Below, in pieces: positions 29,855 through 53,093 of a stretch of DNA of 64,000 nt (position 1 is the first letter of the stretch; each line of letters starts with the position of its first letter). This DNA comes from an uncultured Chloroflexia bacterium. GTDB taxonomy: Bacteria > Chloroflexota > Anaerolineae > B4-G1 > SLSP01. Under the pieces are notes generated by a model. The model was given only the letters and a program-made list of their open reading frames with translations. It did no database searches and was not told the origin of the DNA. The stretch covers positions 384,001 to 448,000 of the forward strand of contig CAVVUS010000011.1 of NCBI GenBank assembly GCA_963751345.1. The letters are read 5' to 3'. A program made the position numbers and the translations under genes.

Positions 29855-30223
29855 ATGAAGGTACTCTACATCGAGGACAGCCCATCAAACCGCCTGCTCG
29901 TCAAGCGGGTCCTTATGGCCGAGGGCTATCAAGTCCTTGAGGCTGAGGACGGGAGCGCTGGAATGGATGTGGCGAAGAGGGAGCGCCCTGACCTCGTACT
30001 GATGGACATGAACCTGCCGGATGTCGACGGATATGAGATGACGCGTCGCATTCGGGCAACCCCCGAGCTTGCCTCTATCCCGATCGTCGCGATGACGGCG
30101 AATGTCATGCATGGAGATCGGGAGAAGGCGCTGGAAGCGGGATGCGTGGGCTATCTTCCCAAACCTATCGATGTTGATGCATTGCCGATGCAGATCGCAC
30201 GCTTTATCGAGGCCAAGCTCTAG
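29855..30223 (+). CDS. single-domain response regulator (DivK-like)
   Basis: VLYIEDS, DLVLMDMNLPDVDG, VAMTA and GYLPKP. Confidence 0.92.
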   Translation: MKVLYIEDSPSNRLLVKRVLMAEGYQVLEAEDGSAGMDVAKRERPDLVLMDMNLPDVDGYEMTRRIRATPELASIPIVAMTANVMHGDREKALEAGCVGYLPKPIDVDALPMQIARFIEAKL

Positions 30224-30308
30224 CTGCATCGGCGGTCCGTGCACGATGCGGTAGGTTGCCGGTTGAGACACCACGGATCTTGCCGTGGGAGCTGGAGGAC
30301 TATCGACT

Positions 30309-30728
30309 ATGAAGTGGAAGGTGATACCCCCGACGGAGGCGACCATCCTCATCGTCGAGGATAACCTCAGCAATTTCATCCTGATGACGCGTCTGCTCGC
30401 GTATCTGGGCGTAAAGAAGTGCGAATGGAAGGCGTCGGGGTGGAAGGTCCTTGAGTTCGCCGAGACGCTCGGCAGGATTGACCTCATTCTTATGGACATC
30501 GCGCTTCCGGATGCGGACGGGTTTGAGTCCCTGGCCTCGCTGCGCTCCGATGATCGCTTTCAGGGCGTGCCCATCGTCGCGGTGACGGCAGACATCTCTG
30601 CGGCAAATCTCAACCGTGCCAGGGATGTCGGGTTCAATGGATTTATCGGCAAGCCTCTGGACCCCGATCGCTTCCCCAACCAGGTTCGTCGAATCCTGCA
30701 GGGCGAGGAGGTATGGGAACAGGAGTGA
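30309..30728 (+). CDS. single-domain response regulator
   Basis: ILIVEDN, DLILMDIALPDADG, VAVTA and FIGKP. Confidence 0.9.
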   Translation: MKWKVIPPTEATILIVEDNLSNFILMTRLLAYLGVKKCEWKASGWKVLEFAETLGRIDLILMDIALPDADGFESLASLRSDDRFQGVPIVAVTADISAANLNRARDVGFNGFIGKPLDPDRFPNQVRRILQGEEVWEQE

Positions 30729-30779
30729 GGGCCTGGGCCGCGCGCTGAGGGCACCTCCAGGGCGATCCCAACGACAGGG

Positions 30780-33326
30780 ATGCGGGGGGGCCTGGGCCGG
30801 ACGCTGCTGACTGCGTTTCTGATCCTCACGATTCTTCCTTTGGTCGTTATCGGCGGCTATGCAGTCCGCCAGAACCGGATGAACCTCGAACACGAGGTCG
30901 CATCTCGGCTGCTCTCTGTGGCCGCCGTCGAAGGCCAGACGTTGTCGCGTTGGCTCGATCAACTGGAGACCTCGCTCTCGACTGTTGTGCTGGTCGAAGC
31001 GAGCCGTGGTGTGCGAGATGCCGAGGCGTCGGGCTATGCGACGTGGTGGTCGGCGCAGCAACGGCAGGTGTCGGGGCTCACCGGGATGGTCGTGCTGGGA
31101 GATGCAGGTGCGGGCGCGACGCCCAGTCCGCTGGGCGCCTCGTCCAGTCCGCTGGGCGCATTCACCCCGGCAGTCCTCTGGCAGACCGGGGCGTGTCGAC
31201 CGGCTGCGGAGGCCATCACGCCTGAGCTACCTGACCTGATTTCCGCTGCACGCAAGGCTCAGCCCTCGGTCTCCCGTCAGGTCGTCGCCTTCGATCCGGG
31301 CACGGCTGGGCCAGAAGCGGGCTTGGCGGTCGTCGTGGGAGCAGCGGAGAACACCATCACCAACGGCGGGTGGCGGGCCGCTGTCTTGTGCGTCGATGCA
31401 GCAGCCGTCCAGGACGTCCTGCAAACTGGGGCGGGGATTGGCGAGACCGGGCGCGTCAGGCTCGTTCACGGATCGGTCGTATGGCCTGGCGGCGAGCCAA
31501 GCGTCATGCCTGCAGTTGCCCTGGCGAGCGACCGTGGCGATGGCGGACGGCCGCTCGGCAGCTACCAGGATCAGGATGGCACCCAGGTCGTCGGTGCATG
31601 GTACCCGCTCCCCGATCTTGGGGGGGGCATCCTGGTCGAGCAGTCTCAGGCCGAGATCACGCAGTCAACCGATAGTATAGCGGCGACCCTGATTGCGCTC
31701 ATCCTCGGCGTCGCCCTCGGTACGACCGCGATTGCGGCGGTCGTGATACGGCAGATCACGCGCCCCGTGATCGACCTGACCGAGTCGGCGGTGGCGATGG
31801 CCGAGGGTGACCTTGACCAGCACCTGTCCGTGCGCTCGCGGGACGAGATCGGGATTCTGACGTACGTCTTCAACGACATGGCGGCGCAGCTGAAGTCGCT
31901 GTACGAGGATCTGGAGGCGAAGGTTGTCGAGCGAACCAGGCGGCTCCAGGAGGCCAACACCCAGATTCAGCGGCGCGCGCTCCATCTGCAGGCGAGCCAA
32001 GAGGTCAGCCAGGCGATCACGTCCATTCGCGACCCGGAGCTGCTGCTGATGCAGGTGACCGACCTGATACGGAACCACTTCGTCTATGGGGCCGTGGCTG
32101 TCTACCTTGTCCCACCCGGAGGCGGAGAGGCGCGACTGCAGGCGCATGCGCCTCAGACGGCGGCGCCTCAGACAGCGACGCCTCAGACAGGGGCGCTCGA
32201 GACGGCCTCCCTCCCCCCGCGCGGGAGCGTTGGGGAGGGGGCGTGGCCGGCGACGGTTCACATCGGCGACAGCTCGGTGGTCGCGGCGACCCTGCGGGCA
32301 GGGACGGCCACCGTCCACAACGAGCCGGCACTCGGCGAACACGACTGGTATGCCCGGATGCTCAGCAGGGCGGCCGTCCCGCTAAAGATGGAGGACCGCG
32401 TCGTCGGCGCTATCGCGGTCACGGCGACGGTTCACGAAGGCATCGAGCAGGACGAGCTGGAGGTACTGGAGGTGCTGGCGAATCAGGTGACCATTGCGCT
32501 GGAGAACGCCCGGACGTATGAGCGCGAGCGTCAGGCGATAGCGCAGCTTGAGGAGGCCGAGGCTTTCAAGGCCCGCTTCCTGGCGAATATGTCGCATGAG
32601 CTGATGGAACCTCTGAACACGATCCTCGGGTTCTCCCGCTTGCTCATCAAAGGCGTGGAGGGTCCGCTGAATCAACGTCAGCAGGAGGACCTGGAGCAGA
32701 TCCACGGTGACAGCCAGCACTTGCTGGATTCCATCAGGGATATACTATCTATCTCACAGATAGAAGCCGGCCTGCTGGAACTGCGGCTGCAGCCCGTCGA
32801 TCTCCGGGAGCTGGTCGCCGGCGTTGTGCCGACGGCAAGCGCGCTGGTTCGGGGGCGAGCGATCGAGCTCAAGTACGATGTACCTGCGGATCTGCCGCGG
32901 CTTCGCGCGGATCCTTCTCGTCTGCGGCAGGTGCTGGTTCATCTGCTCAACAACTCGGCCAAGTTCACGGAATCGGGCGAAATCAGACTTCGGGCATGGT
33001 CCGCTGGAGGGACTGGGCGACTTCAGCCGGACGTGGACGGCCGTTGCGTGATCTTTGTCAGCGTGAGCGATACGGGTATCGGCATTCCTGCCGAGGATCG
33101 GGAGCGCATCTTTTCGCAGTTTGAGAAGGGGGGCAAGCGTGCCCGGACGGCGGCCGGCAGCGGGGCGGGCCTGGGCCTTGCGCTCTGCCGCGAGTTTGTG
33201 GCGCTCCACGGCGGTCGAATGTGGGTGGATAGCGAGGTAGGGGTGGGGAGCGTCTTCACGTTCTCCGTACCGGCATACTGCGACGCGGAAGAGGGAAGTG
33301 CCGCTCCCGGTGCAGGCGTGGCCTGA
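30780..33326 (+). CDS. membrane sensor histidine kinase (TM-Cache-like-TM-HAMP-GAF-HisKA-HATPase)
   Basis: HAMP ITRPV...DEIGIL..FNDM; GAF ending ANQVTIALENAR; H-box FLANMSHELMEPL; LLNNSAKFT, DTGIGI and GAGLGLA. Confidence 0.9.
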   Translation: MRGGLGRTLLTAFLILTILPLVVIGGYAVRQNRMNLEHEVASRLLSVAAVEGQTLSRWLDQLETSLSTVVLVEASRGVRDAEASGYATWWSAQQRQVSGLTGMVVLGDAGAGATPSPLGASSSPLGAFTPAVLWQTGACRPAAEAITPELPDLISAARKAQPSVSRQVVAFDPGTAGPEAGLAVVVGAAENTITNGGWRAAVLCVDAAAVQDVLQTGAGIGETGRVRLVHGSVVWPGGEPSVMPAVALASDRGDGGRPLGSYQDQDGTQVVGAWYPLPDLGGGILVEQSQAEITQSTDSIAATLIALILGVALGTTAIAAVVIRQITRPVIDLTESAVAMAEGDLDQHLSVRSRDEIGILTYVFNDMAAQLKSLYEDLEAKVVERTRRLQEANTQIQRRALHLQASQEVSQAITSIRDPELLLMQVTDLIRNHFVYGAVAVYLVPPGGGEARLQAHAPQTAAPQTATPQTGALETASLPPRGSVGEGAWPATVHIGDSSVVAATLRAGTATVHNEPALGEHDWYARMLSRAAVPLKMEDRVVGAIAVTATVHEGIEQDELEVLEVLANQVTIALENARTYERERQAIAQLEEAEAFKARFLANMSHELMEPLNTILGFSRLLIKGVEGPLNQRQQEDLEQIHGDSQHLLDSIRDILSISQIEAGLLELRLQPVDLRELVAGVVPTASALVRGRAIELKYDVPADLPRLRADPSRLRQVLVHLLNNSAKFTESGEIRLRAWSAGGTGRLQPDVDGRCVIFVSVSDTGIGIPAEDRERIFSQFEKGGKRARTAAGSGAGLGLALCREFVALHGGRMWVDSEVGVGSVFTFSVPAYCDAEEGSAAPGAGVA
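31120..31162. repeat. 21-nt hairpin tandem (CCAG-TCCG-CTGG family) in the kinase periplasmic domain
   Basis: gcccagtccgctgggcgcctc and gtccagtccgctgggcgcatt. Confidence 0.8.
32148..32207 (+). repeat. 15-nt tandem array, GCGCCTCAGACGGCG family
   Basis: Encodes APQTA APQTA TPQTG ALETA inside a GAF loop. Confidence 0.85.
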
Positions 33327-33376: not shown

Positions 33377-35375
33377 ATGGCCAAGCGGAGTAACAGGGAT
33401 CGGGAACTGAGGGCATCGTCGCCGGGCCGCGCGTCGCGCAGCCTGCTGCCTGCGATGCTACGTTTGAGTCGAGTCGCAACGCTACTCGCGTTCGTCGTGA
33501 TCTGCGCGTCGATCCTGATGTTCTATCGCGACATGTTGGCCTGGGCCATCCCTCTTGGCGTCATCGGTTTGGTGCTCGCAATCATCGGGGGAACGCTGAC
33601 GCAGAGCCTCCTCATCCCGAAGCTCGCGGCACAGTTGTTCTCAGCACAGAGCAGCTTCCGCTCCGCGCTTGATGATCGCGCGGCGCTGGCGAGTCAGGTC
33701 GCCGGGCTACGGGACGATCGGGATGAGCTGAAGCAGCGTCTCCTGGCGCTGGAGGATGTGCCTGCGCCTCAGACGGCATCCGCGCCTCAGACGGCATCCG
33801 CGCTTCAGACGGAGGCCGCGCCGCAGACGGCGTCCGCGTCGCAGACGGCGTCCGCGTCACGCGATGCCGGATGCCTCCGGGCAGGGGAAACGCGCCGGGG
33901 CTGCGCCGCACGGGACAGCTGCCGCCCCCGATGGGGCGGATGAGATACTGCGATGGGCCGGCAGATTGGCCACCTCAAGAAGCATCTCGGCTCTCTATGG
34001 GGTTGTCAACGAAGCTATGCAGGGCAGCCGGCCGGCGCGCGTGCTCATCGTCTCGGGGAGCGCCAACAGCCAGGGCGGTCAGGCGATCGACGCCGGTATG
34101 GCCGTCGTGAGCGATGTGCAGGACGGTGGTCAGGTCGCGCCCTCGGCTGGCTCGCATCGTGATGATCTATCCTTGATGGCCGTGCATCCGCCCCAACTGG
34201 CTGACCTGATCCTGCTCGGATCGGGACTCTCCCAACCATTGTGGGTCGAGGATCTGTCCTGCGTCGATCCCGTATTGAGCCCCGAACTCGGCGAAGCGCT
34301 CGTCGGCTTGCGGGAGACCACCCTCTTTGGGGCGTTGGCGCTGATTCCGATGCGTGTCGACCTGCAGCGAGAATCTGGAAGCCCGGGGGACCCTTCACTG
34401 AAAGGGGGCGCTTTGCCCCTGGCGCGGGGGGCGGTTATTGCTCTGTTCGGGGCTGCCCACACGTTCGGGCCGGATGAACGTCGGCTCCACGAGTTGATCG
34501 GCGGTGTGTTCGGCGTCACGTTGGAGCGGATGCGCTCGCTGAGCGACACCCGTGCCGGCCTGATACGGCAGAACGATCTGTCGACGATGGGGCGCAAGAT
34601 CCGCCGTGCCACCGGCGCGGATGCCATCCTGCGGATTTCGGTGCAGGAGCTGAGCCTGGCATTGGGGGCATCCCGCGCGGAGATCCGTCTTGACCCGCAG
34701 GCAACTCGCGACGTGATGGGGTACCTTCCTGCAGACGGCTCTGGTGGCCTTCACGTCGTCGTCGCGTCCGGTGCTGGGGTCCCATCTTGTGCTTGGGTCA
34801 CGGACCTGGGCGATGGATGTTGCGAGCTGTGTGCTCCCATCGTGGTGGCGGACCGAACTCTCGGGTCGATCGTCTTTGAGCAAGATCCCGGTGATGAACC
34901 CTGGGGCACGGCGGATGCTGCTCTGGTCGATCACGCGTGCGAAGAGATCGGTCAGGCACTGGGATATGTCCGGCACCTGGAGGAGATGCAGAGCCGTACC
35001 AACTACGAGCACTTGGGCAGGGAGATCGGCGAGCGTCTGCGCGCCGGTGACGGGGCCTCGCTGCGTCTTGGTGGCGACGGTCGCGGTCCGGACGGGGCAT
35101 CCCCCCGACTCTACCGTGACGGGAACACAGCCGCGATGGACGTCGATCGCATTCTGCGGGCCACGCTGGGTGAGTTGGCCTCCGCACTTGGGGCCACCGG
35201 GACGATCACGCTTCATGCACCTGACGGCTGGGTGACGAGCGCCGCAGGGACGGGCGACGAGCCCCGTGTGGGTGAAGCCACCCCGGGCGCGCAGGCCGGC
35301 GGTAGTGACGCAGACGGGGCACAGCCTCCTAGCTTCGACGACGATGGTAGCGGTCCGGATGGAGGCGTGTCGTGA
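33377..35375 (+). CDS. membrane-anchored protein with degenerate GAF domains and split-GAF tail (frameshift ~33865)
   Basis: Two N-terminal TMs and a coiled coil (33377..33943), then GAF-like segments and tail VDRILRATLGELASALG (33756..35375). Confidence 0.65.
33764..33858 (+). repeat. 18-nt tandem array x5, GCGCCTCAGACGGC family
   Basis: Encodes APQTAS APQTAS ALQTEA APQTAS ASQTAS. Confidence 0.9.
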
Positions 35376-36626
35376 TAGGGTCGCAGCCTCTGGCCATACT
35401 CGCTGTCACCGTCGGGGGTCTATGCCTCGTCCTGGCAATCATCATCTGGCGCCGGCAGGACCGCGCGAGGCACGCAGCTTACGAGGCGGCGTTGCGTCAG
35501 TCAGCCACGGCACTGCGGGATGTCGAGGCGTCAATCGATGCCCAAGTGCAGGCCAGGACCAGGGACCTCCGCCGGCGCTCCGATCTCTTCCGGGGCGCGG
35601 CTGCTGTGGCCAGGGATCTCACCGGGATGCACGACGAAGACGAGTTGATCCATTCTGTCGCCGAGATGATTTGCCGGCGCTTCGATATCGACCGGGCAGC
35701 AGTCTTTCTGACTCCCGGTGGGGTTGGGTGGTCTGCGGAGACGGTGCTCGTGCTAAAGGCCGTGTTCCCTCTGCAGGGACAGGCCTTGCAGGTTGGCGAC
35801 CTGGACCTGGGTGCTGGCCCGGAGAGCGCCGTCTGGGGGGCCTATCGGGAGGGTGAGCCACGGATCAACCACGGTATGGGATCCGAGATCGCGCTGCCAC
35901 TCAGGCTCCAGGACCATGGAGATGCGACAAGCGAGGCCGGGCATTCGCCCCGCTTCCCCAACAGGGGGGCGCGTCATCGGGGTTTTGGACATCCAGTCCG
36001 CGGAGCCCGGGGCGTTTAGCCGTGAAGACCTCGACGTGTTCGGCATCGTGGCCGATCAGCTCGCCTTGGCGATCGAGAACGCGAGTGCGCTCAATGCGTG
36101 CCGCCAGGCCGTCCAGCGGCTCGATATGGCCTACGATACACGGCTGGCGGCCATGTGGCGCGAATCGATAGTGCCCTGGCAGTATCGATTCGACGGTGTA
36201 GAGGTCCACCGTGTTGGTGTCGGCGAGGCCTACGGGGAGCGGGTGGAGCCTCGACCGACCCGCCCGCCGCAGCCCGCCGAGGGAGATTTGGTGGTGCCGC
36301 TATCGCTTCGGGGCCAGGTGATCGGCACGATCGCCCTGAGGCGGAACGGGGAGGCACCTGGATGGTCGCCGCAGGAGCGCGCGCTCGCAGCCTCTGTGGG
36401 CGCGCAGGCCGGGCAGGCCCTGGAGAGTGCACTGCTGCTCAGGGAGAGCCAGATGGCCTTGCTGAGCGAGCAAGCCGCTGAGCGTATCGCTTCCGGGATG
36501 CAGCGGACGCCGGATGTGGACGCGGTCATCCAGACGGCTATGCGAGACCTGCAGGCTCTGTTTGACCTAGAAGCGGTTGAGGTGCGTGTCGATCCGGCCT
36601 CGTCGGCCAAGGGGGAGGCGGGATGA
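35372..36626 (+). CDS. TM-coiled coil-GAF-split-GAF protein, no output domain (frameshift ~35960)
   Basis: SEIALPL / VIGVLDIQS...ADQLALAIENA; VVPLSLRGQVIG; tail DVDAVIQTAMRDL; GTGA overlap with the upstream gene. Confidence 0.8.
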
Positions 36627-38717
36627 GTCGCGAGACGACGCAGCCTAACCGTGGACCCGATCGGGCGTCGCTTCGTCTCTACAGAGGCGGGCGCGCGCCG
36701 ATAGTGGGCGGCGGGTCCCGATCCCTCGTACGTGGGTCGGTTCGCCACCGTCTTCGGACCATGTTGCTTGTCTCCGGTGCGGTGACACTTGCGGTCCTGG
36801 TGGCGTTTGCTGTATACACGCTGCTCATTGGCCGCCAGTTGCAGGTGGTTCTGGGGTTAACGAGTGTCTCCGATAGCGTAGCGGAGGCCTCAGAGCAGCT
36901 GGCATCGTCTCGCGCCGGTCTGCTTAGCTACGCCGGAGGCGTGGCCCCCACGCCGGATGAGGCTGTGGCGAGCCTGGATCGCGCCTCAAACCTCCTGGCA
37001 GAGTCTCGCGCCAACGCCGGTCAGGAGTTGGGTGCACAGATCGAGACCCTGCAGCAGGCTCTCGTGGATCATCGAGTTGAGCTGGCAGCGATAGTAGAAG
37101 CATCGCCCCTCAAAAACCCTGTCCCTGAGGGCGAGGGAGTTCTGGCGGCATCGCCCTTGGTGGACGAGGCGGTTGCGTCGAGCCTGGATCTCAACAACCG
37201 GATCGGGCGCGTGGCCGAGGATGTCCGGCAGGCATCGAATGTTGCCCACGCGATGCTGAGACAGCGAGTCTATCTGTTGGCGATGGTGATTCTGAGTCTG
37301 GCCTTTGTCGGCCTCGTCGGCGTCTCGCTCGTCTTCGCCAACACGACAGGGAGTATTGCCCGCGGGATCGAGGCCCTGCACGCCGGTGCCCAGCAAGTGG
37401 CACGCGGCCGGCAGGGCGTCACAATCCCCGTCGAGGGTGATGGTGAACTGGGCGCCGTGGCTGTGATGCTCAACAGGATGTCTTCGAGATTGGCCGTTCT
37501 GGGCAGTCCGGCATCCACGTCGGTGCCGTCCGTGGAGGCGAGGTTGCTTCCCAGCGTCACACGGGGTGCGCAAGCCAGGTCTATGGTGATGCAAGGCGTC
37601 ATTCGGGTCGGTCGCGCAATTGCCGGTCCCCTGGATCTGGCGACAGTCGAACACAGAGCGGCTGCGGAGATCCGCGACACGTTTCTCCTCGACTGGGCCG
37701 GGATCTACCTTGTGGCAGAGAACGGGCGGACGATCGAGTTGCGAGCGAGTGCGGGCGATGTGGGGGGCAATGCTGATCCACAGGAACGACGTCTGGCGAT
37801 CGGCCAGGGCCTGGTGGGAGGCTCTATCGCAGAGGACAAGCTTCGCGGGAGCGCGCTGGAGATGGCAGCCGCCACCGGTGCGGAGGAGTCGGAGCCCGCG
37901 TCGAGAGCCGAGCGGATCACGCGGGTAGCGATTCCCTTACGTGCAGGCGGGCGTGTCATAGGGGCATTGAGTCTGGTCCTCGATCAGGGGGGATCCCGTT
38001 CGACCTCCACTGCGGGCGGTCTCTCTCTCCCGGCGACCCTAGATGTGCTCGTCGCTGAGGCGCCCGATTTGCTCCAGGCGATGGCGGATCTGGTTGCCGG
38101 TGCCATTGAGAGCGCCCGGCGCTATGGGGCGTCGCCGTCGGCCTTGGCCCCTGGGGGCGAGACGTACCGCAGCTTCACCCGGGATGGATGGCGGCGCGTG
38201 TTCGGTGATCGGGCAGCCGAATACCAACTGACCGGGGCCGGCGCTGTGTCGCGCTCGGAAGGCCCATCGCAGCCCGAGCTGGAGCCTGCGAGGGTGTCGG
38301 GCGAGGTCGTGCGGGAAGGACGGACCGTAACCCTTCCCCTCTCGGTTCGGGGCGAGGCCATCGGGGCCGTGCGCCTGCGGAAGGAAGCCTCGAAGACATC
38401 GCCCGGCGAGATCGATCTGGACAGACCACGAGGTCGAGCTCGCGAGGACGATTGTGGCTCGGCTTGGCGTCGCCCTCGACAGCGCGCGGCTCTATCAGGA
38501 CGCGCAGTTGAGTCTGGCGCGGGAGCGTGCGGCGCGTGAGGTCGCGGATCATATGAGGAATACGCTCGACTGGGACGAGCTGATGCAGACAGCGGTTCGC
38601 GAGATCGGTCGTACGGTTCAGGCGTCGCGAGTTTTCGTGCAGTGGGTGCCGCCCGAGGCGGAGTCTGAACACTCCCCCAGTCCGACGACGACCTCCGCGC
38701 CGCAGTACGGCGTCTGA
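36623..38717 (+). CDS. TM-helical periplasmic-TM-HAMP-GAF-split-GAF protein, no output domain (frameshift ~38420)
   Basis: HAMP GELGAVAVMLNRM; GAF; LPLSVRGEAIG; tail DWDELMQTAVREIG; ATGA overlap. Confidence 0.8.
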
Positions 38718-38758: not shown

Positions 38759-38783
38759 AGCCGCCTGGGATTGAGAGGGAGGT

Positions 38784-41211: not shown

Positions 41212-42960
41212 CCGGGCGGATGGCACGCAGTCAGGTGTCTGAGCGCTTGCGACGGCTGTTCGCGGTCGATGTCTCCGGGAATGGGGCTGAGGGCGCCACG
41301 ACTGAGCGATGCCAGACTTGGAGCCCTCGTGACCACCCTTTCCGCGATGGGTTTCCTGATCGCCGGGGCACTGCTGATCATCGTGGAGGTCGGCCGGCGT
41401 CGGGGCTACTTCGGGTCGGGACGCCAGGTGCTCGTCACGTCCCTCTTTCCCCTGGCCTTTCTGCCGCTCTCGGTCTACTGCTTTGCATTGGCCAAACGGG
41501 GTCACGTGCGCGGCGCTGCGAGGGTCTACGCGTGGACGACCTTCGTCGCGATTGTGCTTGCTGCCGCGCTGTTCAACGGCTACCTGTCGGCAACGTGGAT
41601 ACTGGTGTTCTGGCCCCTGGCGCTGGCGGGCAGTCTGCTGAGCCCGATCCGCGCAGTTCAGTTTGCTGTGGCTGCATTGGCTGCCTATGGCGGGATCTAT
41701 GTGGTCGAACGGGCCGGGTGGTACCGGCCCCCCTTGCCGACCGCACCCGCCGGATTCTCCTTTTTTGCGCTGTCGTTCGGTTGGCTGATGCTCGCCATCG
41801 CCGCGGGCATGGTGAACTACCTGCACGGGCGAAGCCTGCAGGGCACGCTGACCGAGCTCCGCGAGACCTCACGCGACCTGGAGGTCGCCCGACGCGACCT
41901 GGTCGTGCGGGTGGAACAGCGCACGGCAGAACTCAGCAGGCGTGCCGAGCAGTTCAGGGCGATTGCCGAGTTATCGCAGGCGGCGGCTGCGATCCGGGAT
42001 CCGGATGAACTTCTCACGGCAGCAGCAGCATTGATCTCGCGAGAGCTGGACTTCTACCACGTAGGGATCTTCATGCTCGATGGCGGGTGGGCGGTGCTGC
42101 GCGCCGCATCGTCGGAGGGTGGCCAACGGATGCTCGCGCGAGGACACCGCCTCAGGATTGGGCAGCAAGGCATCGTCGGCTATGTTGCGGAGATGGAGAC
42201 GTCCCGCTATGCGTTCAACGTCGGAGATGACGCGGTGTGGTTCAACAATCCCGACTTGCCGAGCACCAAGTCCGAGATCGCCCTGCCGCTGATCATCGGC
42301 GCACGCATCAGGGGAGTGTTGGATATCCAGACGGAGGTGCCGGTCGCATTTGGTGACGAGGATGTCAAGGTGTTGCGCGTCCTTGCCGACGGTATCGCCA
42401 TCGCAATCCAGAACGCACGATCGTTGCAGGAGATCCAGGCTGCGATGGAGCGCTTGGAGCGCTACCAGACGACCGATGTGCTGCAGGCCTGGCGTCGCAC
42501 CCTGGCTCGCAAGGATCTGCGGGTGGGTTACGTCTACACGGATGGGGAGACGATGCGACGCCCGTCCGGCGCAGACCGGCAGCCCAATCACGCGGACGGC
42601 ATCGCGGACGTGACTCAACAGACCACCGAGGACGGTAGCTATCTCCTGCTGGCCCCGGTTCGGGCGGCTGGACGAGACGTCGGGGTGATGTCGTTCGAGC
42701 GAAGCACCCCGTGGAGCGCCGAGGCTATGCAACTGGTCCGAGCCGTCGTGGCACAGCTCGATCTGGCGCTGGAAAACGCCCGACTGTTGGAGGAGACACG
42801 CCGCAGGGCAATGCAAGAGGCAGCGCGTGGCGAGATCGTCGGACGGATCCGGGCGACCGCGAGCACGGATGCTATCCTGCGAAACGCTGCGGAAGAGCTG
42901 GGCCGTGCCCTGCAGGTCGAACGCAGTCGTATTCAGTTGGTGCCGCCCGAGGAGATGTGA
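41208..42960 (+). CDS. multi-TM-GAF-split-GAF protein, no output domain (start 41208 with an early frameshift, or ~41269-41281)
   Basis: About 5-6 TMs; GAF FYHVGIFML...GHRLRIG...NPDLPSTKSEIALPL; tail TDAILRNAAEELGRAL. Confidence 0.85.
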
Positions 42961-42964: not shown

Positions 42965-45900
42965 GTGAACCAACAAGGCAATCGGGCCGCACGGCCTGGC
43001 ACCAGCAACCGGATGACGTTGATCGTGGCGGGGCTTCCTCTGCTCTTTCTCGCGCCCCTCCTCATCGGCCTGGGGTGGTACTACCTGGACGCCCATCGAG
43101 AGGACGCCTGGAGCCAGGCTGACCTCGCAACGCTGCAGGTGCGTCAGATCGTCAATGCCCTCACACCGTCTGTCGGTACGATCGAGGATGCGCTTGGCAT
43201 CACGGGTTATCTCGAGGAAACGGCCGGGAACGCGGCGGACTTCGACTTCATCGCCCTGGTGACCTACGATGGCACCGTTCTGGCGCACGCCAGTCCGCTG
43301 GCGCACGCCAGTCCGCTGGCGCATTCGCTCTCCGGCTACCAGGGGCTCAGGGTGGCGGAGTTGGCAAACCTCTACCAGGGGACGATCCCACGGGGCCCGG
43401 TTCAAGATCCCGGGGCTACGCCCACGAGCGGGGTTACCCGGCGCACCCTTCCCGGCGGAGATGTCTATCTCGTCTGGCGCGCCATGGCTATGCCGGGAGG
43501 CAGCGTCTCGGGTCCGGAGGGCCGGCTTTACATCGTGGTGGGTGAACCGGTAAGCGTCGTGGATCTGCCGGTTTACCCGTTCGTTATCGCGGGGGGAGTG
43601 GCCATCCTGGTGATCACCTTGATTGTCCATATGACACTCCGCCTGTTAGTGGTCGAGCCTTTAGGGAAACTCGCCGAGGGCGCTGTTCGCATCGGTGCTG
43701 GAGATCTGGCGCACACGATTCAGTTGGACCGCAAAGATGAGTTCGGGTTCGTTGCCCGTGCTCTTAATGATCTATCCGGCAGGTTTGGGGTCGCCGTATC
43801 AAGCTTGGAGCGTACCGTCGCGTCGCGCACGGCCGAGCTGGAGCGCCGAAACACGCAGCTTCGTGCGGTGAGCCTCGTTGCGCAAGAAGCCACGCGAGAA
43901 CGCGACGTGAACTCGCTGTTGACGACGGCGGCCAGTGCGATCTCCGACAACTTCGGATACTACCACACAGGCGTTTTCCTCGTCGATGACGCAGGGGAGT
44001 GGGCCATCCTGCGGAGTGCCTCGTCGGAGGGCGGCAAGCGAATGCTCAGCCGGGGACATCGGCTGAGGGTCGGACAGGTGGGTATCGTCGGCTACGTGGC
44101 GGCGCGCGGCAAACCGCGTGTCGCCTCGATGGTGGACAAGGACGAGGTTTGGTTCGATAACCCGGATCTTCCCGAGACCCGGTCCGAGCTTGCGCTTCCG
44201 CTGCTCGCGCGACGCCAATCTGCCGGCGCTCGCCAGGCCGATGGCGCTCGCCAGGCTGCTGGCGCTCGCCAGGCTGCTGGCGCCTTACCCTCCGTCATCG
44301 GCGTGCTCGATGTCCAGAGCGTTGAGATGGCAGCGTTCACGGAGAGTGACATTGCCACGTTGCAGCTCATGGCAGATCAACTGGCCGTGGCCCTCAACAA
44401 TGCCCAGGCCAATGACCTAATGGAAATGGCTCTGGCGGAGCTGCGTGATCTGCAGGTTGACTATGGCCAGAGGGGTTGGGCAAGGGTCGCACGGCGCATG
44501 CGCCCGATGGCCTATGAGTACGATCGTGCCTCCACGGTGCCGGTGCCCCCTGTTCCTATACCTCCCGATCTGGCGGAGGGCCGGATCTTGTCCGGCGTGG
44601 TGATGGATGGGGGAGTCCCCACGATCCTGGAGGCGCTTCGCGTTGGAGACCGGACGCTCGGGTACCTGGGTCTGACCGACGCCAACCGGGTCTGGGCGGA
44701 GGACGAGCTGGCCCTCGTCAGAAGCGTCGGCGAGCAGGTGGCCCTGGCGCTCGACAATGCGCGGCTGTTCGAAGACACCCAGCGCAGCGAGCGCCAGCAG
44801 TATCTGATCAGCCGCATTCTGCAGGCGGCTGCGGCGCCTCGGACGGCGGAAGCGCCTCAGACGGCGGAAGCGCCTCAGACGGCGGAGGCGCCTCAGACGG
44901 CGGAGACCGAGACGGGACAGCGCCCCGTCTCCGCGACCGCCGGCGATGGCCGGGAGCCGCAGGCGGCAACGGTGCTGCGTGAGATCGCGCGAGTACTGGC
45001 CCAGGGACTCAATATGGCGGTGGTGATCTTCACCTTCCCCAATCCGGGACGCCCCGTAGTTAGGTCGCACGCCGTCATCGACCCCAGCGGCGAAAGGCTG
45101 CCGCTCTTTGAAGAGGATCTGACGCTATCACCTGAGCATTTCTATTTCTTCCATGGTCTGGCAGATCCGGAGTTGGGGCCTCTGGCTCCACTCTTGGAGG
45201 GCTCGGATACTCTCCGTCGGCATCGTGCCGATCCCGCTGCCTCTCAGCCGGACGACAGCTATCTTGGAGCGTTGGACCGTTTCGACACCGATCGCGTGCT
45301 CTATGTGCCGATCGCCCAGATCTCGCAGAGTCGCATCCGCGAGGGCTTGAATGTGGCAGCGTCGCGAGCGACGGCAAGTCGCAGCGGTTTCATCGCCCTG
45401 ATCCCGGTGCGCGACGCTCCTCCGGTGGATCCCGACACTCGTGAGTTGGCCCAGGATCTCGCCAACCAGGTCGCCGTGGTCCTGGAGAACCTGAACCTGT
45501 CCGAGGAGACCCGTCAGCGTTCGGAGGAGTTGCGCGAGCTTTATCGGATCTCGCTGGAGCTCGCCGAGATCCTTGAGCCCGGGGAGGTGCTTGCCCGCCT
45601 GATGGTCCGGGGCACGGCCCTTCTGGGAGCAGACGCTGCCAATCTCTGGATCTATGACGCTGATGCGGGTGGGCTGGTGCCGGCGTCTCGATCACGTTCG
45701 TTGGGACGCAGAAGACGGGGACGCGGCGCGAGCATACCGACGGCGAGGGAAGGGTACCCGCGGCGCCGGTTGTCCGTCCGATTCGGTTGGGACGCGACTT
45801 GGCGGACGAGGCGCTCGACCGGCAGCAGACGGTCTACACGCCCGATGTCGCCGCGCAGGGAGAGTTGAGTGATGCCGCAGGGCCGTTCCGATCCTTGATG

Positions 45901-48003
45901 GCAATCCCCTTGTCGGGCGGCTGGGTCCCCTGGGTGTGCTCGTGGTTATGTCGGAGGAGACAGGGGCCTTTGGCCCGCGAGACGCGGGACTTGCCGGCCT
46001 CTTCTCGGCTCAGGCGGCGGCGGCCCTCGAGAACGCGCGCCTCAATCGGGAGGCTCAGCGACGGGCTGAGGAGTTCTCTCAGCTCTACGATGCAGGCATC
46101 GACCTCATCACGATCCTCGATGTCGAGGATCTCCTGAACAGATCTGCCGACTGGGCCCGGCGTGTGTTCGCTGCCGAGCGGGCGGTCGTCTTTCTGCGAT
46201 CTCCCGGCCGGGGCGCCGGACGATATCTGCGCGGGCAGATGGCGGATGGGGCGCAGAATCTGTTCGATCCGGAGACAGACCAGCCCAGCTCTGATGGGCT
46301 AACCGAGCATATCATCACTACGAACAAGAGCATCATTGTACGGGACAACCGCGAATCACCGCTGCCCAGTGCGGCACGCCTGGTCGAAGCCGGGCTGTTC
46401 TCGCAAATGGGGACGCCCCTGCGCGTCGGCGATGAGGTGATTGGCGCGCTATTTGTGAATGGGGCGGAGGCGGACCGGTACGGTGACCGGGATCTGAATC
46501 TCCTGGAGTTCCTGGCGACGCAGATCTCTTCCGCGCTGCAGAACGCCATCCAGTTCGGCCAGACCGAGCACGCGTTGGCGCTCGTGGGGCGACAGGCACG
46601 CTACCAGACCAACGTCTCTCAAGCGGTGGCATTGCTCAACGAGCTGGGCACCGATGCCGGTCCCGACGTGCTGCGGCTCGTTGGAGAGGCCGCGGGGGCA
46701 CAGGAGGTGCTCTACTACACGGCCGGCCAGGGTCGCTGATGGGTCAGAGAATGGCGACGTTGAGGGCGTCGTCTGGCGGCTGAAGAGTGCCTGGGTTGCT
46801 GAGAGGGTAGATAGCCCGTCGCCGGTGACCTCGCCATCAGGTCTCCTCTCGGCGAAGGATTTCCCACGCTGGCGGAGGTCTCTGGAGGAGGAGGGCTACT
46901 GGGCCTCGAACGGGGCCGGTCGATCTCCCGCGTCTCCCTTCGACGCTGCGCTGTGCCTGGGTCTGGCCGTGCCGGCGGAGGGTTCGTGTCCGGGCTTTCT
47001 CGCTCTGCTGAGTGACGGCGATGTGCCGTGGGAGAAGCAGGACATCGTCGCGCTGCAGACGGTGGCGGCTGCTTTCTCCAACACGTCGGCGCGGGAAGCG
47101 CTTTTCCGGCAGGTTGAATCCACGCTTAGCGAGACGGATGCCCTGTACAGGGGCAGCGCAGCTTTGAGCGAGGCCCGCACCTACGACGCCATTCTGGAGA
47201 CCCTGTTGCAGCATACCGTTCTCGGTGAGGGTTCGCAGAGAGCCACGCTTGAGCTGTTCGACCGGCCGTGGGCCGAGGCTACGGTGCCCGAGCCCTACAC
47301 CCGCCGCCCTGCCGAGGAGGGCCAGGCGACAGGGATACCTCAGGACTCGGAAATCGTGGCCTACTGGCCTATGGGTGAGAGCATTGAGATACGCGCACGA
47401 TACGCCGGGCGCAAGTTCCGGGCGCTCTTGCGCGCGCTGGAAGCAGGCGCACCCGTCTTCATAGAGGACCTTGGGAAGGTTGGGCTGGATCGTCCCCATA
47501 CAGACGAGCCTCCTGACCCCGCGCGCGAATCGCTCGTGCTGGACCGAAGGGCACTGGCCCTGTTTCGGAGGGCGCTGGGGGCGGAGAGCGTCATCTTTGT
47601 GCCGCTCACCGTGGGAGGCCAGAAGATCGGGTTCCTGCACGCCGACTATGCTTCTCCCCGGACGTTCTCGGATGCGGCGCGACGTCGTCTGGTCAGCCTG
47701 GCACAACAGGCGTCCGTCGCGGTCCTCAACCTGCGGCAGCTTCGCGAGACCGAGGCCCGCGTGAGGAGAGAGCAGTTGATCCGCCGGATTACGGGTCAGA
47801 TCCAGGAGGCCCCGGACGTGGAGGGCGTTCTGAAGACCGCGGTGATGGAGCTTGGGCGAGCCTTCGGGACACCGCGGGGCCGGATCCTGTTCCGGGAGCC
47901 CGAGACGGCCCACCGGGGTATCTCGACAGCGGATACGGACCCGGGTGGTGGTGGCGGGCCGAGCCAGCCCGATGACAAGCGCGGGAAGGGCACCGATTTA
48001 TGA
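42965..48003 (+). CDS. large TM-HAMP-multi-GAF protein with split-GAF tail, no output domain (about 3 frameshifts)
   Basis: ORFs 42827..45868, 45787..46137, 45936..46739 and 46654..48003 give about 6-7 GAF-type units ending in ALDNA/LEN motifs; tail DVEGVLKTAVMELGRAF. Confidence 0.78.
43280..43323. repeat. 18-nt hairpin tandem CGCCAG-TCCG-CTGGCG
   Basis: (ctggcgcacgccagtccg) x2.4; encodes LAHASP. Confidence 0.85.
44225..44282. repeat. 18-nt hairpin tandem CGCCAG-GCTG-CTGGCG
   Basis: (ggcgctcgccaggctgct) x3; encodes GARQAA in a GAF beta-hairpin. Confidence 0.85.
44834..44905 (+). repeat. 18-nt tandem x4, GCGCCTC(A/G)GACGGCG family
   Basis: Encodes APRTAE APQTAE APQTAE APQTAE. Confidence 0.9.
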
Positions 48004-51000
48004 AGCGCGCGAGCAGAAGCCGGGCCGTGCTTCTCGATGAGGTGAGAGACCTTCGGGAGCAGCTTGCCACGTTCTCGGGAGATGATCTGGCGACCACCGT
48101 CCGGCTGGTCCAGCCACTCATCGATGCAATACCGAACCCGATCTACTACAAAGCCGCGAACGGCGTCTACCTGGGCTGTAACGCTGCCTTTGCCAGGGAT
48201 GTGCTGGGGATAACCCGGGATAGGATTGTTGGCTGCACCGTAGCCGATCTGGCCGACGCGGTCCCTGCGGAGCTTGGCGACCTGCACGACAGGCAGGACA
48301 TCGCCCTTATGGCCTCGCACGGGACGCAGGTGTTTGAGGCGCCTGTCAGGTTCGCCGATGGATCTGAGCGTGACGTCCTCTTCAGCAAGGCCGTGCTTGA
48401 GGGGCCCACGGGCGGGATTGCCGGTATGGTAGGGGTTATGGTCGACGTGAGTGCCTACAAGTCGCAGGAGACCGGGCGCGACGCCGATCTGCTCGATGCA
48501 CAGCGACGGGCCACGCGTCTGCAGGTGGCCGCCGAGATCTCGCGGGCTGCATCCTCACTGCTTAGCCTTGATGAGCTGCTCCCGAAGTCCGTGAATCTCA
48601 TTCGCGATCGCTTTGACTTCTACTACGCCGGCATCTTCCTGCTCGATGAGCTCTCCGAATGGGCAGTTCTGCGCGCCGGAACCGGCGAGGCCGGCAGCAA
48701 GATGCTGGCTGCCGGGCATCGGCTGCTGCGCGGCGGCGATTCGATGATCGGCCAGTGCGTGGCCACCGCCGAGCCCCGCATCTCGCTTGACGTCGGCGAA
48801 GTGGAGACCCGCTTCGATAATCCCCTCCTTCCGGAGACGCGCTCGGAGATGGCGCTTCCCCTCATCAGCCGGAACAGGGTGATCGGAGCGATGACGATCC
48901 AGTCCGACCAGGCGGGCGCCTTTGCCGAGGAGGATATCACGGTCCTGCAGACGATGGCCGACCAGCTTGCCAACGCCATCCAGAACGCGCATCTCTTCGA
49001 GCAGATGGATGAGGCGGTCCGTGAGAACGAGATGCTCTATAACGTGAGTACCGCCGTCGGGGACGCCCGGTCACTGGAAGGCGTGCTGCAGGCGGCAGTC
49101 GACGTAGCGGCCTTCCTGGCGATGGACAGTGCTGCGCTCTGGACGTTCACGCGCTGGGATGCAGAAGGCGTGCCTGTGGCGGCAGATGTGCATACGGAGA
49201 CCTTGCGCCAGGCCGGAGCCGCGGATTTCCAGGAAGAGCAGGGCATAGCCTTCGACCGGGATCTGTATGGCTGGCTGTTTGCCGATCCCAGGCGCATCCA
49301 CGCTTACGCGGACCTGGGCGAATCGGCGGACCTGCAGGTCGTTGCGGGGGCAGCACCTGAGCTTCCCCCCCGGCAATCCTGGACCCCATGCGGCGTCAGG
49401 GGAATCGCAGCCTGATCGCCGCCGTGCTGGTCTCGCGGGAAAGACACCAGGGCGTCCTGATGTTGTATGGCCCCCAACCCCTCAAGGCGCTCCCCGATCA
49501 TCACGTCCAGGTGTTCGCTCGGTCGCTGGCCGATCAGGTGGCTTCGGTCCTGGACCGCCATGCGCTAGCTGCGGAGGCGGCGCGGCGGGCGTCGCAATTG
49601 GCCGCAGCGGCTGAAGTCTCGCGCGCCCTCTCGGCATACCTCGACTTGGAGCAGTTGCTGTCGGTGGCTACGTCACTCATCCAGGATCGTTTGGGAGTGG
49701 CCTACGTGGGTGTCTACGTGCAAGGGGAGGCGATCGGGACTGCGCCTGCCGGCCTGGATTTGCGGGCCGGGAGCGGCGACACAGCAGGCCGGTGGGATCC
49801 CGAAAATCCCCCTGCCTGGATCGGCAGATCCATCGGCGAACGCCGAGTCATGCGCAGCAGCTCGCCGCACTCGGAGAAGGCGAGCCGGGCGTGGGGAGCC
49901 ACGCCGAGCCTTGCAGCCCTCCCGCTTATCAGCCACGGCGAGGCGGTCGGTGTCGTAGTCATTGAGGCTGCGACTTCGGCGGCGCTCGACGACAATGATG
50001 TGGCGATCTATGCGACGCTTGCCGATCACCTGGCCAATGCGATTGTCAATGCCCGGCTGTTCGCGTCCTCCCAGGCGAGCCTCGAAGAGCTGCGTCGCCT
50101 GCAGCAGCAGTACGCTATGGGTATGTGGCGAGACTACTTGGCGCATCAGGAAGTCCTCGGCTATGCCTATGATCGTGAGGAGATTCTGCCGGTGGAAATC
50201 CCGGGTGCGACGGAGGGAGATGAGAGCCCGGAGCTCGCAGCAGCCGGGTCGTGGGAGCGGACCCTCGAACGTCCCCTGCATATCCGGGGCGAGACCGTCG
50301 GGGTGATGAGCTTCGGCGCCCCAGACGGCGTCGGCGACGCCGGAAACCCCGCCGGCGTGGTCAGAAGACCAGGTCGCGGTGCTGGAGGCCGTCCGTGAGC
50401 AGCTCGAATTGGCCCTGGAGAACCGGCTATTGATGGACCGTTCGCAGCGCTCGCTGGCGGAGACGAGGGCGCTCTATCGGATCGCCCAGCAGATCACCGA
50501 CGCCCGCGACACGACATCCGTCTTGCGGGCCGCAGTAGGGGGCATCTCCGTTCGTCAGTCTGAGGATACGGCGGTCGGGCCGGACTACGTCATAGCAGCG
50601 CTGCTTGAGCCCCGGACCGGCCCGAACAGGCTTCGCATCGTAGCCTCGCAAAGTCGCTCCGGCGACCCTGCACCGGTGGATGGCCTTTATTTCGATGATG
50701 TCCGCCGGTTCTATGAGGTGCTGCGCATCGAGGACCGGTTCATCACGCCGGATGTGAGCGGGAATCCTCTGTTCGGGGAGGGCATGCGGCGCTTCTTCGA
50801 GGAGTTGGGCATTCGTGCGACGGCGGCGTTTCCGCTGAGGGTTCGTGACGCCTACTATGGCACGATGATGGTCCACAGCGAGAGCGTTCGGGAGTTCACG
50901 GCCGCCGAGCTGAGCTTCTATGAGAATGTGGCGCGGCAGGCCTCGGTGGCGCTCGACAACCTCAGCCTTGTGGATGTCACCCGCGCGCAGGCCGAGCGTC

Positions 51001-53093
51001 GCGACATTCTGAACCAAGTTCTGCGTATCGCTTCGGCTTCCCTGGATCAGGCCACGATCGTCGGCGATGTCGGCGAGGCGCTCTCCCGGCGGCTGGATCG
51101 AGCCGTGTTGACGTGGGAGCACACCAGGACCTCAACCCGCCCGATATCGGCACACGAGGCCGGCGGCCGACGTATACCGTTTGAGATGTTAGACACCCAG
51201 GTCGTCGGGCCCGGTTGGCTCCCGGTGGCGGAACTGTGCTCGGCATGTGGCCGAAGGGGGCGAGCCGGCGATGTTGCGCCTTCGTGAGTCCGCAGAAGAC
51301 GGGGAACTGCCCCGTCTCTACAGTGGAGAAGGGGCACCAGATGGAGCACCGCCCAATCTACTCCTGGATCTAGTCGATGCGTATGCCGTGCCCCTCGCCG
51401 CGCGCGATACGGTCTACGGCGCGATCGTTCTCGGACGCCAGAACGGCCAGGAGCCCCTCGACGACCTGGAGTGCGAGTTGCTGCAGGTGGTGGGCACCAG
51501 TGTCGGCACGGCTCTGGAGACTGCAGCACTCTATCGGGATGCCCAGGAGACGGCTGTCAAGCTCAAGGAAGTCGACGACCTTAAGAACCAGTTCATGGCG
51601 AACATGTCCCACGAGCTGCGGACGCCGCTGAACTCTATCATTGGATTCTCCCGGGTGATGATCAAGGGCATCGATGGGCCGCTGACCGACATGCAGGAGA
51701 CGGACCTGAACGCGATCTATGACAGTGGGCGTCACCTGCTGAATCTGATCAACGATATCCTCGACATCTCCAAGATCAATGCCGGCAAAATGGAGATCAT
51801 CTTCGAGGCCATCGACCTGCGGGAGATGGTGCAGAGCGTTATGTCGACGGCCCTCGGTTTCGTCAAAGATCAGCCGATTGCCCTGCTGACCGACATACCG
51901 GATGACTTGCCACTCGTCGTGGCCGATTCACGCCGGATTCGACAGGTGCTCATCAACTTGCTGGGCAACGCGGGCAAGTTCACCGACAAGGGCTTCATCA
52001 AGGTGTCGGCTACCTACGACGACTACCAGGTAATCGTCAGCGTCCAGGATACCGGGATTGGCATCCCGCCCGACCGGATCCACGCCGTTTTCGAGCAGTT
52101 CGAGCAGGTCGACTCTACTTCGACGCGGCGCTATGGCGGTACGGGACTGGGCATTCCCCTTAGCCGGGAGTTCGTCCTCATGCACGGCGGCGATATGTGG
52201 ATCCAGGAGACCGTGGTCGGCCAGGGCACGATCTTCTGCTTTTCCCTGCCTCTCGGCGGACCCGAGGTCCGGCCTGAGGAGAACCGCCAGGAGGGGCTCA
52301 GCTTCATTCCGGCGCCGGTCTGCCCGGGAATCGAGGTGGGGTCTCCAAGGTTGTTCTCACGGTCGACGACGATGCGGGCGTCGTGACACTGTTCCGCCGT
52401 TACCTGGAGAAACAGGGGTATCGCGTCTTTGGCCTTACGAATGGGACGCGCGTGGTAGACGAGGCCAGGCGCCTCAGACCGTATGCGATCACGCTCGATG
52501 TCGTTATGCAGGATGAGGATGGGTGGTCCATCCTGGAGAGTCTCAAGGCGGATCCGGAGACGCGCGACATCCCAATCATCCTGTGCTCCATCCTTGGCGA
52601 CAAGCACAAGGGGCTGAGCATGGGGGTTGCTGACTATCTGGTCAAGCCGATCACCGAGCAGGATCTGCTTGAGTCGCTGGCTCGACTGGACACAGGATCT
52701 GGCCGCGGGCACGTGCTCCTCGTCGACGACAATGCTGGGGACAGGAAGTTGTGGCGGCGCATCCTCGAGGATGCCGGCTATCAGGTCGTTGAGGCCGGTG
52801 GCGGCGCTGCTGCAATCGACCACATTCACACAGCGCGCCCATCCGCAGTCGTTCTGGACTTGATGATGCCGGAGGTCGATGGGTTCCAGGTACTGGAGCA
52901 GCTTAAGGCAGACCCGAACACGCGTCAGGTGCCCGTCATCGTGGTCACCGCGAAGGACCTTGGGACAGAGGAACGTAGCAGGCTGCAGTTGCGAACCGTG
53001 GCGCTGCTACAGAAAGGGTTGTTCGATCAACAGCAACTCCTGGCCGACGTCGCCTCTGCGCTTGCTCGCGCCGACCATGCTCGGGTCACCTGA
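48000..53093 (+). CDS. cytoplasmic hybrid histidine kinase PAS-multi-GAF-HisKA-HATPase-REC-REC (about 4 frameshifts)
   Basis: PAS IPNPIYYK..YLGCN; several GAFs; FMANMSHELRTPLNSIIGFS; NLLGNAGKFT; GGTGLG; two receivers ITLDVVM and VLDLMMP; ATGA overlap with the upstream gene. Confidence 0.88.

Follow-up and report, generated by a model that had tools for sequence, protein, structure and literature searches.

How does a membrane receptor pass on its signal when it carries no output domain of its own? Two designs dominate descriptions of bacterial transmembrane signalling: receptors joined to their own kinase or cyclase, and many methyl-accepting chemotaxis proteins (MCPs) sharing one CheA. The question is raised by an operon found in a stretch of 64,000 nucleotides from an uncultured Chloroflexia bacterium (hereafter the window), where six genes for membrane receptors built from GAF domains (G1 to G6) are preceded by two single-domain receivers (RR1 and RR2) and a membrane histidine kinase (HK1), and followed by a soluble hybrid kinase (HK2). 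An initial annotation, made by a model from the letters alone, had described ten co-directional genes at 29855-53093, a layout that the listing of open reading frames (ORFs) on the + strand and the Pfam matches bear out (Table 1). The lack of output domains in the receptors is real and not an artefact, and the gene order, the position at which the receptors stop and the receiver pair are conserved in related loci.

The evidence for missing outputs comes from Pfam searches (E ≤ 0.01) with all 19 reading-frame pieces of the operon as queries, 11 of them derived from G1-G6. In these 11 pieces no HisKA, GGDEF, phosphatase or MCPsignal domain was found, and apart from two sub-threshold matches (JIP_LZII and DUF3369) only GAF families, HAMP and dCache_1 were detected, the N-terminal piece of G1 having no Pfam match. 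The claim that the six middle proteins lack an output domain thus stands, and intact homologues in many assemblies end at the same place. Their input ends had been described as diverse (two transmembrane (TM) segments, one TM segment, helical periplasmic, Cache-like, multi-TM and TM-HAMP), and TM segments placed by a hydropathy scan agree with this description. A GAF model (PF01590, PF13185 or PF13492) scored above its curated cut-off in G1, G2, G4, G5, G6, HK1 and HK2, while the GAF score of G3 (19.5 bits) is below the cut-off of 22.4 bits, its C-terminal stub (described below) being nonetheless a strong match. G4 combines HAMP (E 7.8e-14) and GAF_2 (E 1e-14) with a dCache_1 match (E 4.6e-5) that is below its cut-off. 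With G5 as query, 1,196 homologues were found at E ≤ 1e-3 among 8,000 scored candidates; in 118 of the 120 that were listed, GAF is the only Pfam family, the other two adding DUF3369. Among the matches listed, most are of similar length and the named ones are labelled Anaerolineae, Thermoflexales or Thermoflexia.

About eleven frame breaks occur in these 23 kb, including one each in G1, G2, G3 and G4, two in G6 and four in HK2, leaving G5 as the sole unbroken gene among G1-G6 and HK2. Such a density would suit six decaying kinase remnants, or output domains hidden by the breaks, yet this explanation is extremely improbable. All 12 segments compared between the window and L001, a relative with 76-91% identity, have a ratio of nonsynonymous to synonymous substitution rates (dN/dS) of 0.087-0.249, on either side of the breaks alike (0.14 for G4 and 0.13 for HK1), and the operon genes are under purifying selection. 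In L001, G6 and HK2 are single frames of 1,716 residues (stop to stop, against about 1,660 residues in the window) and at least 1,631 residues, respectively, the G3 orthologue runs on in frame 3 over 38418-38705, and the breaks lie elsewhere, in G4 and G5. Short-read contigs of four public runs were aligned to 44000-53100, and they are one base shorter at 45687, 46738, 50338 and 51245, restoring the frame at four of the six breaks of that region; the remaining two have little or no contig cover. A homopolymer of five or more bases is present in only 5 of 10 break zones. Frame breaks are general in this assembly, since a RecJ-like gene (DHH domain in 22293-23111, DHHA1 and RecJ_OB in the overlapping frame 23039-24241) and a long gene without Pfam matches located 5' of the operon (26664-29759, over three frames) are also split. 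Based on the low dN/dS, the intact L001 frames, the short-read contigs and the split RecJ-like gene, the breaks look like assembly errors rather than decay. The annotation had also envisaged that polishing might reveal fused output domains; none appears in the intact homologues from many assemblies, which terminate at the same position, and the gaps between G1-G6 are of 0-75 bases only, so that there is no space for a further domain between the receptor genes. Contigs of two runs (X2 and X4) have an extra A at 45908, which matches no frame break and may be a difference of a more distant strain.

What the receptors have in common is their distal end, a stub of about 55 residues with the consensus ALENARLL..Q.RA.RE....EIT..I........IL.TA..EL.RAL......I, usually preceded by a small GAF-like unit (mini-GAF). 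A custom hidden Markov model (HMM) applied to the window and 23 related loci showed that 125 receptor frames stop 0-45 residues past the stub, and 36 sampled stubs could be aligned without gaps. Mean pairwise identity over 98 modules is 0.35 for the stub and 0.33 for the mini-GAF core, compared with 0.14 for the linker before them. A search of the whole genome gave 14 domain matches, the seven with E ≤ 1e-3 all lying inside the cluster; of the weaker ones, four are inside it and three outside (E 0.026-3.5). The shared "GAF plus conserved tail" described initially holds for G2-G6, each with a strong terminal stub, with the reservation that G6 is a giant poly-GAF protein and that the stub of G1 is degenerate. 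Likewise, the motif GHRL..NP.LP.TRSE.ALPL can be read clearly in the translations of G4, G5, G6 and HK2 only. The GAF of G4 and the first GAF of HK2 share long identical runs (SMIGQC, NPLLPETRSE and VIGAMT). The helix entering the first GAF carries a motif, which we take to be of the ERT type, in HK1 (VVERTRRL), G4 (VEARTRGL), G5 (VEQRTAEL) and G6 (VASRTAEL), and in HK1, G4 and G6 this helix comes after HAMP.

In sequence, the stub is similar to the opening helix and strand of a phytochrome-type GAF or PHY domain, with a match to phytochrome 8w26 at E 1.2e-4. When the last 134 residues were modelled from 98 sequences (predicted local distance difference test (pLDDT) 78), three strands were followed by a 38-residue helix, another helix and a short closing strand (130-133). 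This last strand lies in a beta-ladder and is presumably paired with the preceding mini-GAF, the only possible partner in a monomer. In the full-length AlphaFold2 model of G5 (pLDDT 81), five TM helices lead into a helix of 80 residues and the GAF; a long helix and a disordered loop come next, before three strands and two helices, and the last strand of the stub is not seen. A fold search of the module model in the PDB returned no match at E ≤ 0.001, the best being a weak one to the GAF-PHY junction of 8w26 (E 5.6e-3, TM-score 0.43), and the phytochrome likeness is for this reason a lead only. Read from their sequences, the receptors would be poly-GAF stalks cut just past the first strand of a would-be next GAF. 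The stub may then serve for docking, or be just the shortest end with which the last domain is stable. A further idea, that the stub and the N-terminus of the kinase are the two halves of one split GAF, was rejected: in L008, L012 and L020 the kinase appears to begin with a whole mini-GAF that bears a long insert, and in HK2 the first domain is a PAS.

Both kinases of the operon have HisKA and HATPase_c domains (E 1.3e-14 and 2.5e-25 in HK1; E 7e-21 and 1e-26 in HK2, which adds two REC domains), and RR1 and RR2 provide Response_reg partners. HK1 spans the membrane at residues 3-31 and 296-326, with about 265 periplasmic residues in between. In HK2, no TM segment occurs in the first 471 residues, the part scanned, and its description as a soluble PAS-multi-GAF hybrid kinase is upheld by Pfam and by the hydropathy scan; its orthologues are of about 2,190 amino acids with HisKA, HATPase_c and REC. 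In the translation of RR1, an acidic pocket, a Thr and a Lys accompany the phospho-Asp motif LMDMNLPDVDG. The designation of the free receivers as DivK-like is not supported: RR1 scored 57.8 bits with the DVU0259_DivK model (NF045717), whose cut-off is 160, and this model is absent among the best 25 families of RR2. The best family matches are the receivers of hybrid kinases (BarA and TorS).

Overlapping start and stop codons had been reported at four sites. Those at 35372, 36623 and 48000 are true gene junctions, while the ATGA at 41208 is the start of an off-frame ORF, the start of G5 being placed at 41269, from where its orthologues align. The operon is taken to end at 53093, because the small gene after HK2 has its own promoter-like and terminator-like sites.

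Conservation was addressed with 23 loci fetched around G5 relatives, giving 24 sequences with the window; Pfam was run on six of the loci. Gene order across Anaerolineae, which the initial annotation had proposed as a check, is indeed conserved: a receiver pair comes first, followed by 5-10 receptors and one hybrid kinase, often with a ParA-like ATPase just before the kinase and often with a PALP enzyme fused to a receiver (PALP-REC) and an EamA transporter after it. In the window, at least five stub-ended co-directional receptors are likewise preceded by two receivers and followed by a hybrid HisKA kinase. The receiver pair is at the head wherever the upstream end is in view (window, L008, L011 and L015), orthologues of RR1 (53-56% identical) and RR2 (53-58%) being the first and second genes of the arrays in L008, L011 and L015. 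The input domains of the receptors in relatives include dCache, HAMP, MASE11, PAS and periplasmic binding domains, and the hybrid kinase ends with HisKA-HATPase-REC-REC. Wherever a kinase core came into view, in 11 of the 24 sequences, it belongs to a HisKA-HATPase gene located downstream of the receptors and on their strand; the remaining 13 sequences break off within a receptor, at the ParA-like gene or within a long soluble poly-GAF frame, and no array ending without a kinase was found among the 24. The ParA-like gene (AAA_31) is located between receptors and kinase in 13 of the 23 loci. PALP-REC genes occur in seven loci, their enzyme part being threonine-synthase-like although below the NCBIfam cut-offs, and EamA genes in five.

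On a broader scale, 301 Chloroflexota genomes were sampled, including five unpublished ones (G145, G038, G227, G272 and G173). Of the 300 other genomes, 25 have a strong module match (best E ≤ 1e-30); every one of the 19 members of family f2, which belongs to the window's class, is among them. None of the five unpublished genomes is, and no other claim draws on these five. Two single-contig genomes have 9 and 11 module matches, each set on one strand, within 16 and 21 kb. Use of the mini-GAF and stub profile as a counter of arrays was rejected, 283 of the 301 genomes having a match at E ≤ 1e-8.

Taken together, these observations suggest the following mechanism. The receptors keep a full stalk for sensing and transmission, in which an input that varies from one to the next, periplasmic or in the membrane, leads through a HAMP and/or a long ERT-type helix to a GAF, a mini-GAF and the stub, and they have no transmitter of their own. 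The receptors, the two receivers and a soluble hybrid kinase made of the same GAF and mini-GAF units would be co-transcribed, and the receptors would act in trans on the co-operonic kinase, here HK2 and possibly also HK1. Contact could take place along dimeric stalks of GAF domains and helices, as mixed dimers or as rods lying side by side, so that many inputs would set the autophosphorylation of one kinase, and phosphoryl groups would pass to the two receivers of HK2 and/or to RR1 and RR2. Action in trans on a shared kinase has, in our judgement, about an even chance of being correct. We infer it from the lack of any other output, the signal-passing stalks, the linkage to a soluble kinase of the same units and the precedent of CvnF8-CvnA8 (see below), the contact itself being deduced from synteny only. 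The ancestral output was probably direct control of a metabolic enzyme, because PALP-REC and an EamA-type transporter follow the same kinase in relatives.

Several points weigh against receptors that signal through the kinase. The link between them is one of gene order, and paralogues arising by tandem duplication may well stay adjacent without interacting. By sequence, the conserved tail is not a special docking motif: at E ≤ 1e-30, the mini-GAF and stub profile finds 16,548 representative proteins, some with as many as 21 matching stretches, so that the stub is an ordinary GAF-to-GAF junction of poly-GAF proteins. Judging from the 134-residue model, it may do nothing more than round off the last small domain, and its conservation would then call for no partner. 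At its N-terminus, the kinase is not conserved from one lineage to another (PAS in the window and L003, GAF directly in L002, a short basic motif and mini-GAF in L008, L012 and L020), with no common docking site evident. No Hpt domain (PF01627) was found in the cluster or in the whole genome, which is 93% complete, the control search having matched in 9 of 14 genomes. Finally, this copy is atypical by the presence of HK1 and by its missing ParA and PALP genes. Prediction of a complex between HK2 residues 1-430 and the mini-GAF and stub of G5 (scores 0.33, 0.31 and 0.26, for a mark of 0.32 and controls at 0.00) speaks neither for nor against binding. A 2,352-residue HAMP...HisKA protein (P0188), considered as a natural G6-HK2 fusion, was discarded since it has only generic GAF-to-GAF similarity.

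The same facts that weaken a common docking site, namely the variable kinase N-termini and a stub that may merely complete its domain, would be expected if the receptors act alone, for instance as membrane GAF ligand binders or as scaffolds recruiting or sequestering some other target, and neighbour the kinase through duplication and shared regulation. In Chloroflexota, poly-GAF proteins without an output, some as long as about 2,700 residues, are indeed common, and these units are also found joined to HD-GYP, GGDEF, HWE or STAS outputs, as generic building blocks would be. We nevertheless regard independent action as unlikely, given the kinase found downstream wherever its core is in view, the receiver pair conserved at the operon head, the overlapping codons that join G1/G2, G2/G3 and G6/HK2, and the lack, inside the arrays, of any conserved target gene besides ParA, the kinase and PALP-REC. 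Another partner for the receptors would be HK1, directly upstream of G1, with which they could form mixed dimers or clusters in the membrane where both reside, through the same succession of TM, HAMP, ERT-type helix and GAF. This pairing is improbable, as HK1 was not seen at this position in distant arrays, where a receptor directly follows the receiver pair and the soluble hybrid is the only kinase. The presence of many receptors with variable inputs and one constant distal end, of one kinase with stand-alone receivers, and of a ParA-like gene exactly between receptors and kinase in over half of the loci, where the adjoining kinases have a common basic N-terminal motif (RLNRLF.DIK), raises the prospect of an ordered supramolecular assembly that includes the kinase, is positioned by ParA where present and is cooperative like a chemoreceptor lattice. 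There is little likelihood of such an order here: the cluster has no MCPsignal, CheW or CheA-type domains, and the window operon lacks a ParA-like gene, the best one of the genome being on another contig (C40, 36% identity). A wider proposal, possible if doubtful, is that of a second, non-MCP type of bacterial receptor array, in which stub-ended receptors would dock by their distal ends and GAF stalks on one kinase, with a ParA-like ATPase where present, their signals being summed and read by receivers and, ancestrally, by phospho-control of a threonine-synthase-like enzyme and an exporter.

Table 1. Genes, terminal stubs and upstream site of the receptor operon (window coordinates; E, E-value).
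Feature	Position	Strand	Description
Promoter-like site 5' of RR1	29746..29774	+	TCGCCA-17-TATGAT, 9/12 matches; 1 site vs 0.4 expected; weak consensus match only
RR1, stand-alone receiver	29855..30223	+	122 aa; Response_reg only, E 7.8e-29
RR2, stand-alone receiver	30285..30728	+	147 aa; Response_reg only, E 2.5e-19
HK1, membrane histidine kinase	30780..33326	+	2 TM, HAMP, GAF, HisKA, HATPase_c; no receiver
G1	33377..35375	+	2 adjacent TM, hexapeptide-repeat linker, GAF (E 7e-7), degenerate stub; frame break near 33756-33943
G2	35372..36626	+	1 TM, GAF, mini-GAF, stub; frame break near 35793-36019; GTGA overlap with G1
G3	36623..38708	+	TM, ~140-residue helical periplasmic part, TM, HAMP, GAF, mini-GAF, stub; frame break near 38400-38540; ATGA overlap with G2
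G4	38784..41211	+	dCache-like periplasmic domain between TMs, HAMP, GAF, mini-GAF, stub; frame break 40795-40919
G5	41269..42960	+	5 TM, long helix, GAF, mini-GAF, stub; intact
G6	~43013..48003	+	TM, ~150 periplasmic residues, TM, HAMP, about six GAF-like units, stub; frame breaks near 45687 and 46738
HK2, soluble hybrid kinase	48000..53093	+	Coiled coil, PAS (PAS_4), about five GAF-like units, HisKA, HATPase_c, REC, REC; frame breaks ~49365-49415, ~50338, ~51245 and ~52290-52386; ATGA overlap with G6
G1 stub			Internal match E 1e-6; terminal match E 0.94 (degenerate)
G2 stub	36414-36590	+	E 3e-15; 11 residues before stop
G3 stub	from 38469	+	E 8e-23; 23 residues before stop
G4 stub	40984-41160	+	E 2e-18
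G5 stub	42763-42939	+	E 1e-20; 6 residues before stop
G6 stub	47716-47892	+	E 3e-20

Further differences between this copy and its relatives concern accessory genes. ParA-like ATPase, PALP-REC and EamA genes are all absent from the window, and L001-L003 also carry PALP-REC genes at other places. On contig C22 (about 49600-55900, minus strand; loci L034 and L024), a second signalling module comprises, in this order, a soluble GAF-PAS-GAF-PAS-GAF HisKA kinase (frame of 1,188 aa), a threonine-synthase-like PALP enzyme with two receivers (frame of 697 aa), a stand-alone receiver and a GNAT acetyltransferase; it may be the output arm of the array, now detached from it. Contig C13 carries a small chemosensory set of its own, comprising the only MCPsignal match of the genome and its two CheW matches. 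In L002 and L003, the nearest intact relatives, the array includes a gene for a protein resembling an ABC substrate-binding protein (12344-13618 and 9868-11280, respectively), and in L002 also a SpoIIAA/STAS-like gene (3142-3519), neither of which occurs in the window. The motif RLNRLF.DIK, found in kinases 3' of the ParA-like gene (L008 from 14892, L012 from 11871 and L020 from 13736) and followed there by a Pro/Ala-rich linker and the mini-GAF, could be where the ParA-like ATPase makes contact. L002 and L003 do not have this motif, and in the window and in L001 HK2 opens with another basic helix.

Tandem repeats of 15 or 18 bp, a period that keeps the reading frame, are scattered over the operon (32148-32196, 33764-33856, 38694-38758, 40177-40220, 40681-40731, 43280-43323, 44200-44283 and 44822-44905) and also occur at 10353-10389 and 16315. 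Within the operon they fall in the linkers of HK1, G1, G4 and G6 and at the 3' end of G3, where they encode hexapeptides such as PQTASA; the 18-bp repeat of G1 is that of 33764-33856. Several have a common core (GCGCCTCAGACGGCG..), and the 12-base core was found 55 times at 41 sites of the genome, for about 2 expected. The number of copies differs in L001, and one short-read contig is without one 18-bp unit. This sequence looks like a dispersed, expandable mini-repeat that tolerates coding regions. Directly after HK2, the small gene at 53177-53443 encodes about 88 residues with two Cys-rich motifs of the 4Fe-4S ferredoxin type, as judged from its translation by eye, and is equipped with a strong promoter-like site (53096-53123, 11/12), a GGAGG ribosome-binding site and a terminator-like hairpin (53462-53487). 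No Rfam match at gathering thresholds was obtained over the whole window.

The building blocks of this operon are known domains, and it can be viewed as two-component signalling with accessory sensors, but the layout appears undescribed: a full-text search of the literature retrieved no description of such an array, nor does the available part of PMC8199190 contain one. Conservation of the array extends across a whole class of bacteria that are abundant in the environment, and a fusion of a pyridoxal-phosphate (PLP) enzyme and a receiver is linked to it in seven loci. If the receptors do act on the kinase, many full-length receptors without transmitters beside one HisKA-type hybrid kinase would constitute a third design of transmembrane signalling and illustrate how a signal can leave a GAF and coiled-coil stalk without a covalent output. 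They would also offer synthetic biology a natural module leading from many inputs to one output, and point to an as yet unknown regulated metabolite in Anaerolineae. Should the view of a second type of receptor array hold, the sensory lattice would switch metabolism or the production of secreted compounds rather than motility. One of the loci, L015, is from a metagenome-assembled genome labelled Anaerolinea thermophila. This species has a cultured type strain, and if that strain carries the array, bench tests would become possible.

Among known systems, the plan resembles that of chemosensory pathways, where many MCPs, CheW, one CheA and CheY work together and where ParA-like ATPases (ParC and PpfA) position the assembly in some species. 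In both, paralogous membrane receptors are numerous, differ in their inputs, lack enzyme domains and share a constant membrane-distal end, in company with one soluble kinase gene and stand-alone receivers, and the occurrence of a ParA-like gene in 13 of 23 loci makes the analogy stronger. In contrast to chemosensory clusters, the operon has no MCPsignal, CheW, CheA-type (Hpt, P5), CheB or CheR domain by Pfam, and the kinase is a HisKA-type hybrid. Accessory GAF sensors offer a second term of comparison. In Staphylococcus carnosus, the GAF-only protein NreA controls the histidine kinase NreB in trans. In Streptomyces coelicolor, according to the available part of the report, the GAF accessory protein CvnF8 forms a stable complex with the sensor-less histidine kinase CvnA8 and stimulates its autophosphorylation (PMC13343842). 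The likeness is one of domain layout and gene position, an output-less GAF protein being encoded beside a kinase without extracytoplasmic sensor. Unlike CvnF8 and NreA, which are single small soluble proteins per kinase, the receptors described here are large membrane proteins, five to ten or more for one kinase, each with its own input domain, HAMP and helical stalk.

Another relevant case is the stressosome, in which RsbR paralogues with varied N-terminal inputs share a constant STAS part and work with RsbS and the Ser/Thr kinase RsbT. Here too, several paralogous sensors combine varied N-terminal inputs with a conserved C-terminal part, no enzyme domain and one kinase, but no STAS domain was detected by Pfam in any window gene, the SpoIIAA-like gene lying inside the L002 array. 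The stub and the strands and long helix before it recall the GAF-PHY spine of phytochromes (SyB-Cph1, 8w26), where the last strands and a long helix lead into the first helix and strand of the next domain, although the cluster has neither a bilin-binding PAS-GAF-PHY module nor any PHY or phytochrome match in Pfam. Finally, the RetS-GacS pair, in which one sensor alters another kinase by direct contact, resembles the proposed mechanism in that control would be exerted by protein contact and not by phosphotransfer; RetS retains a kinase-like core, whereas the receptors of this operon have none.

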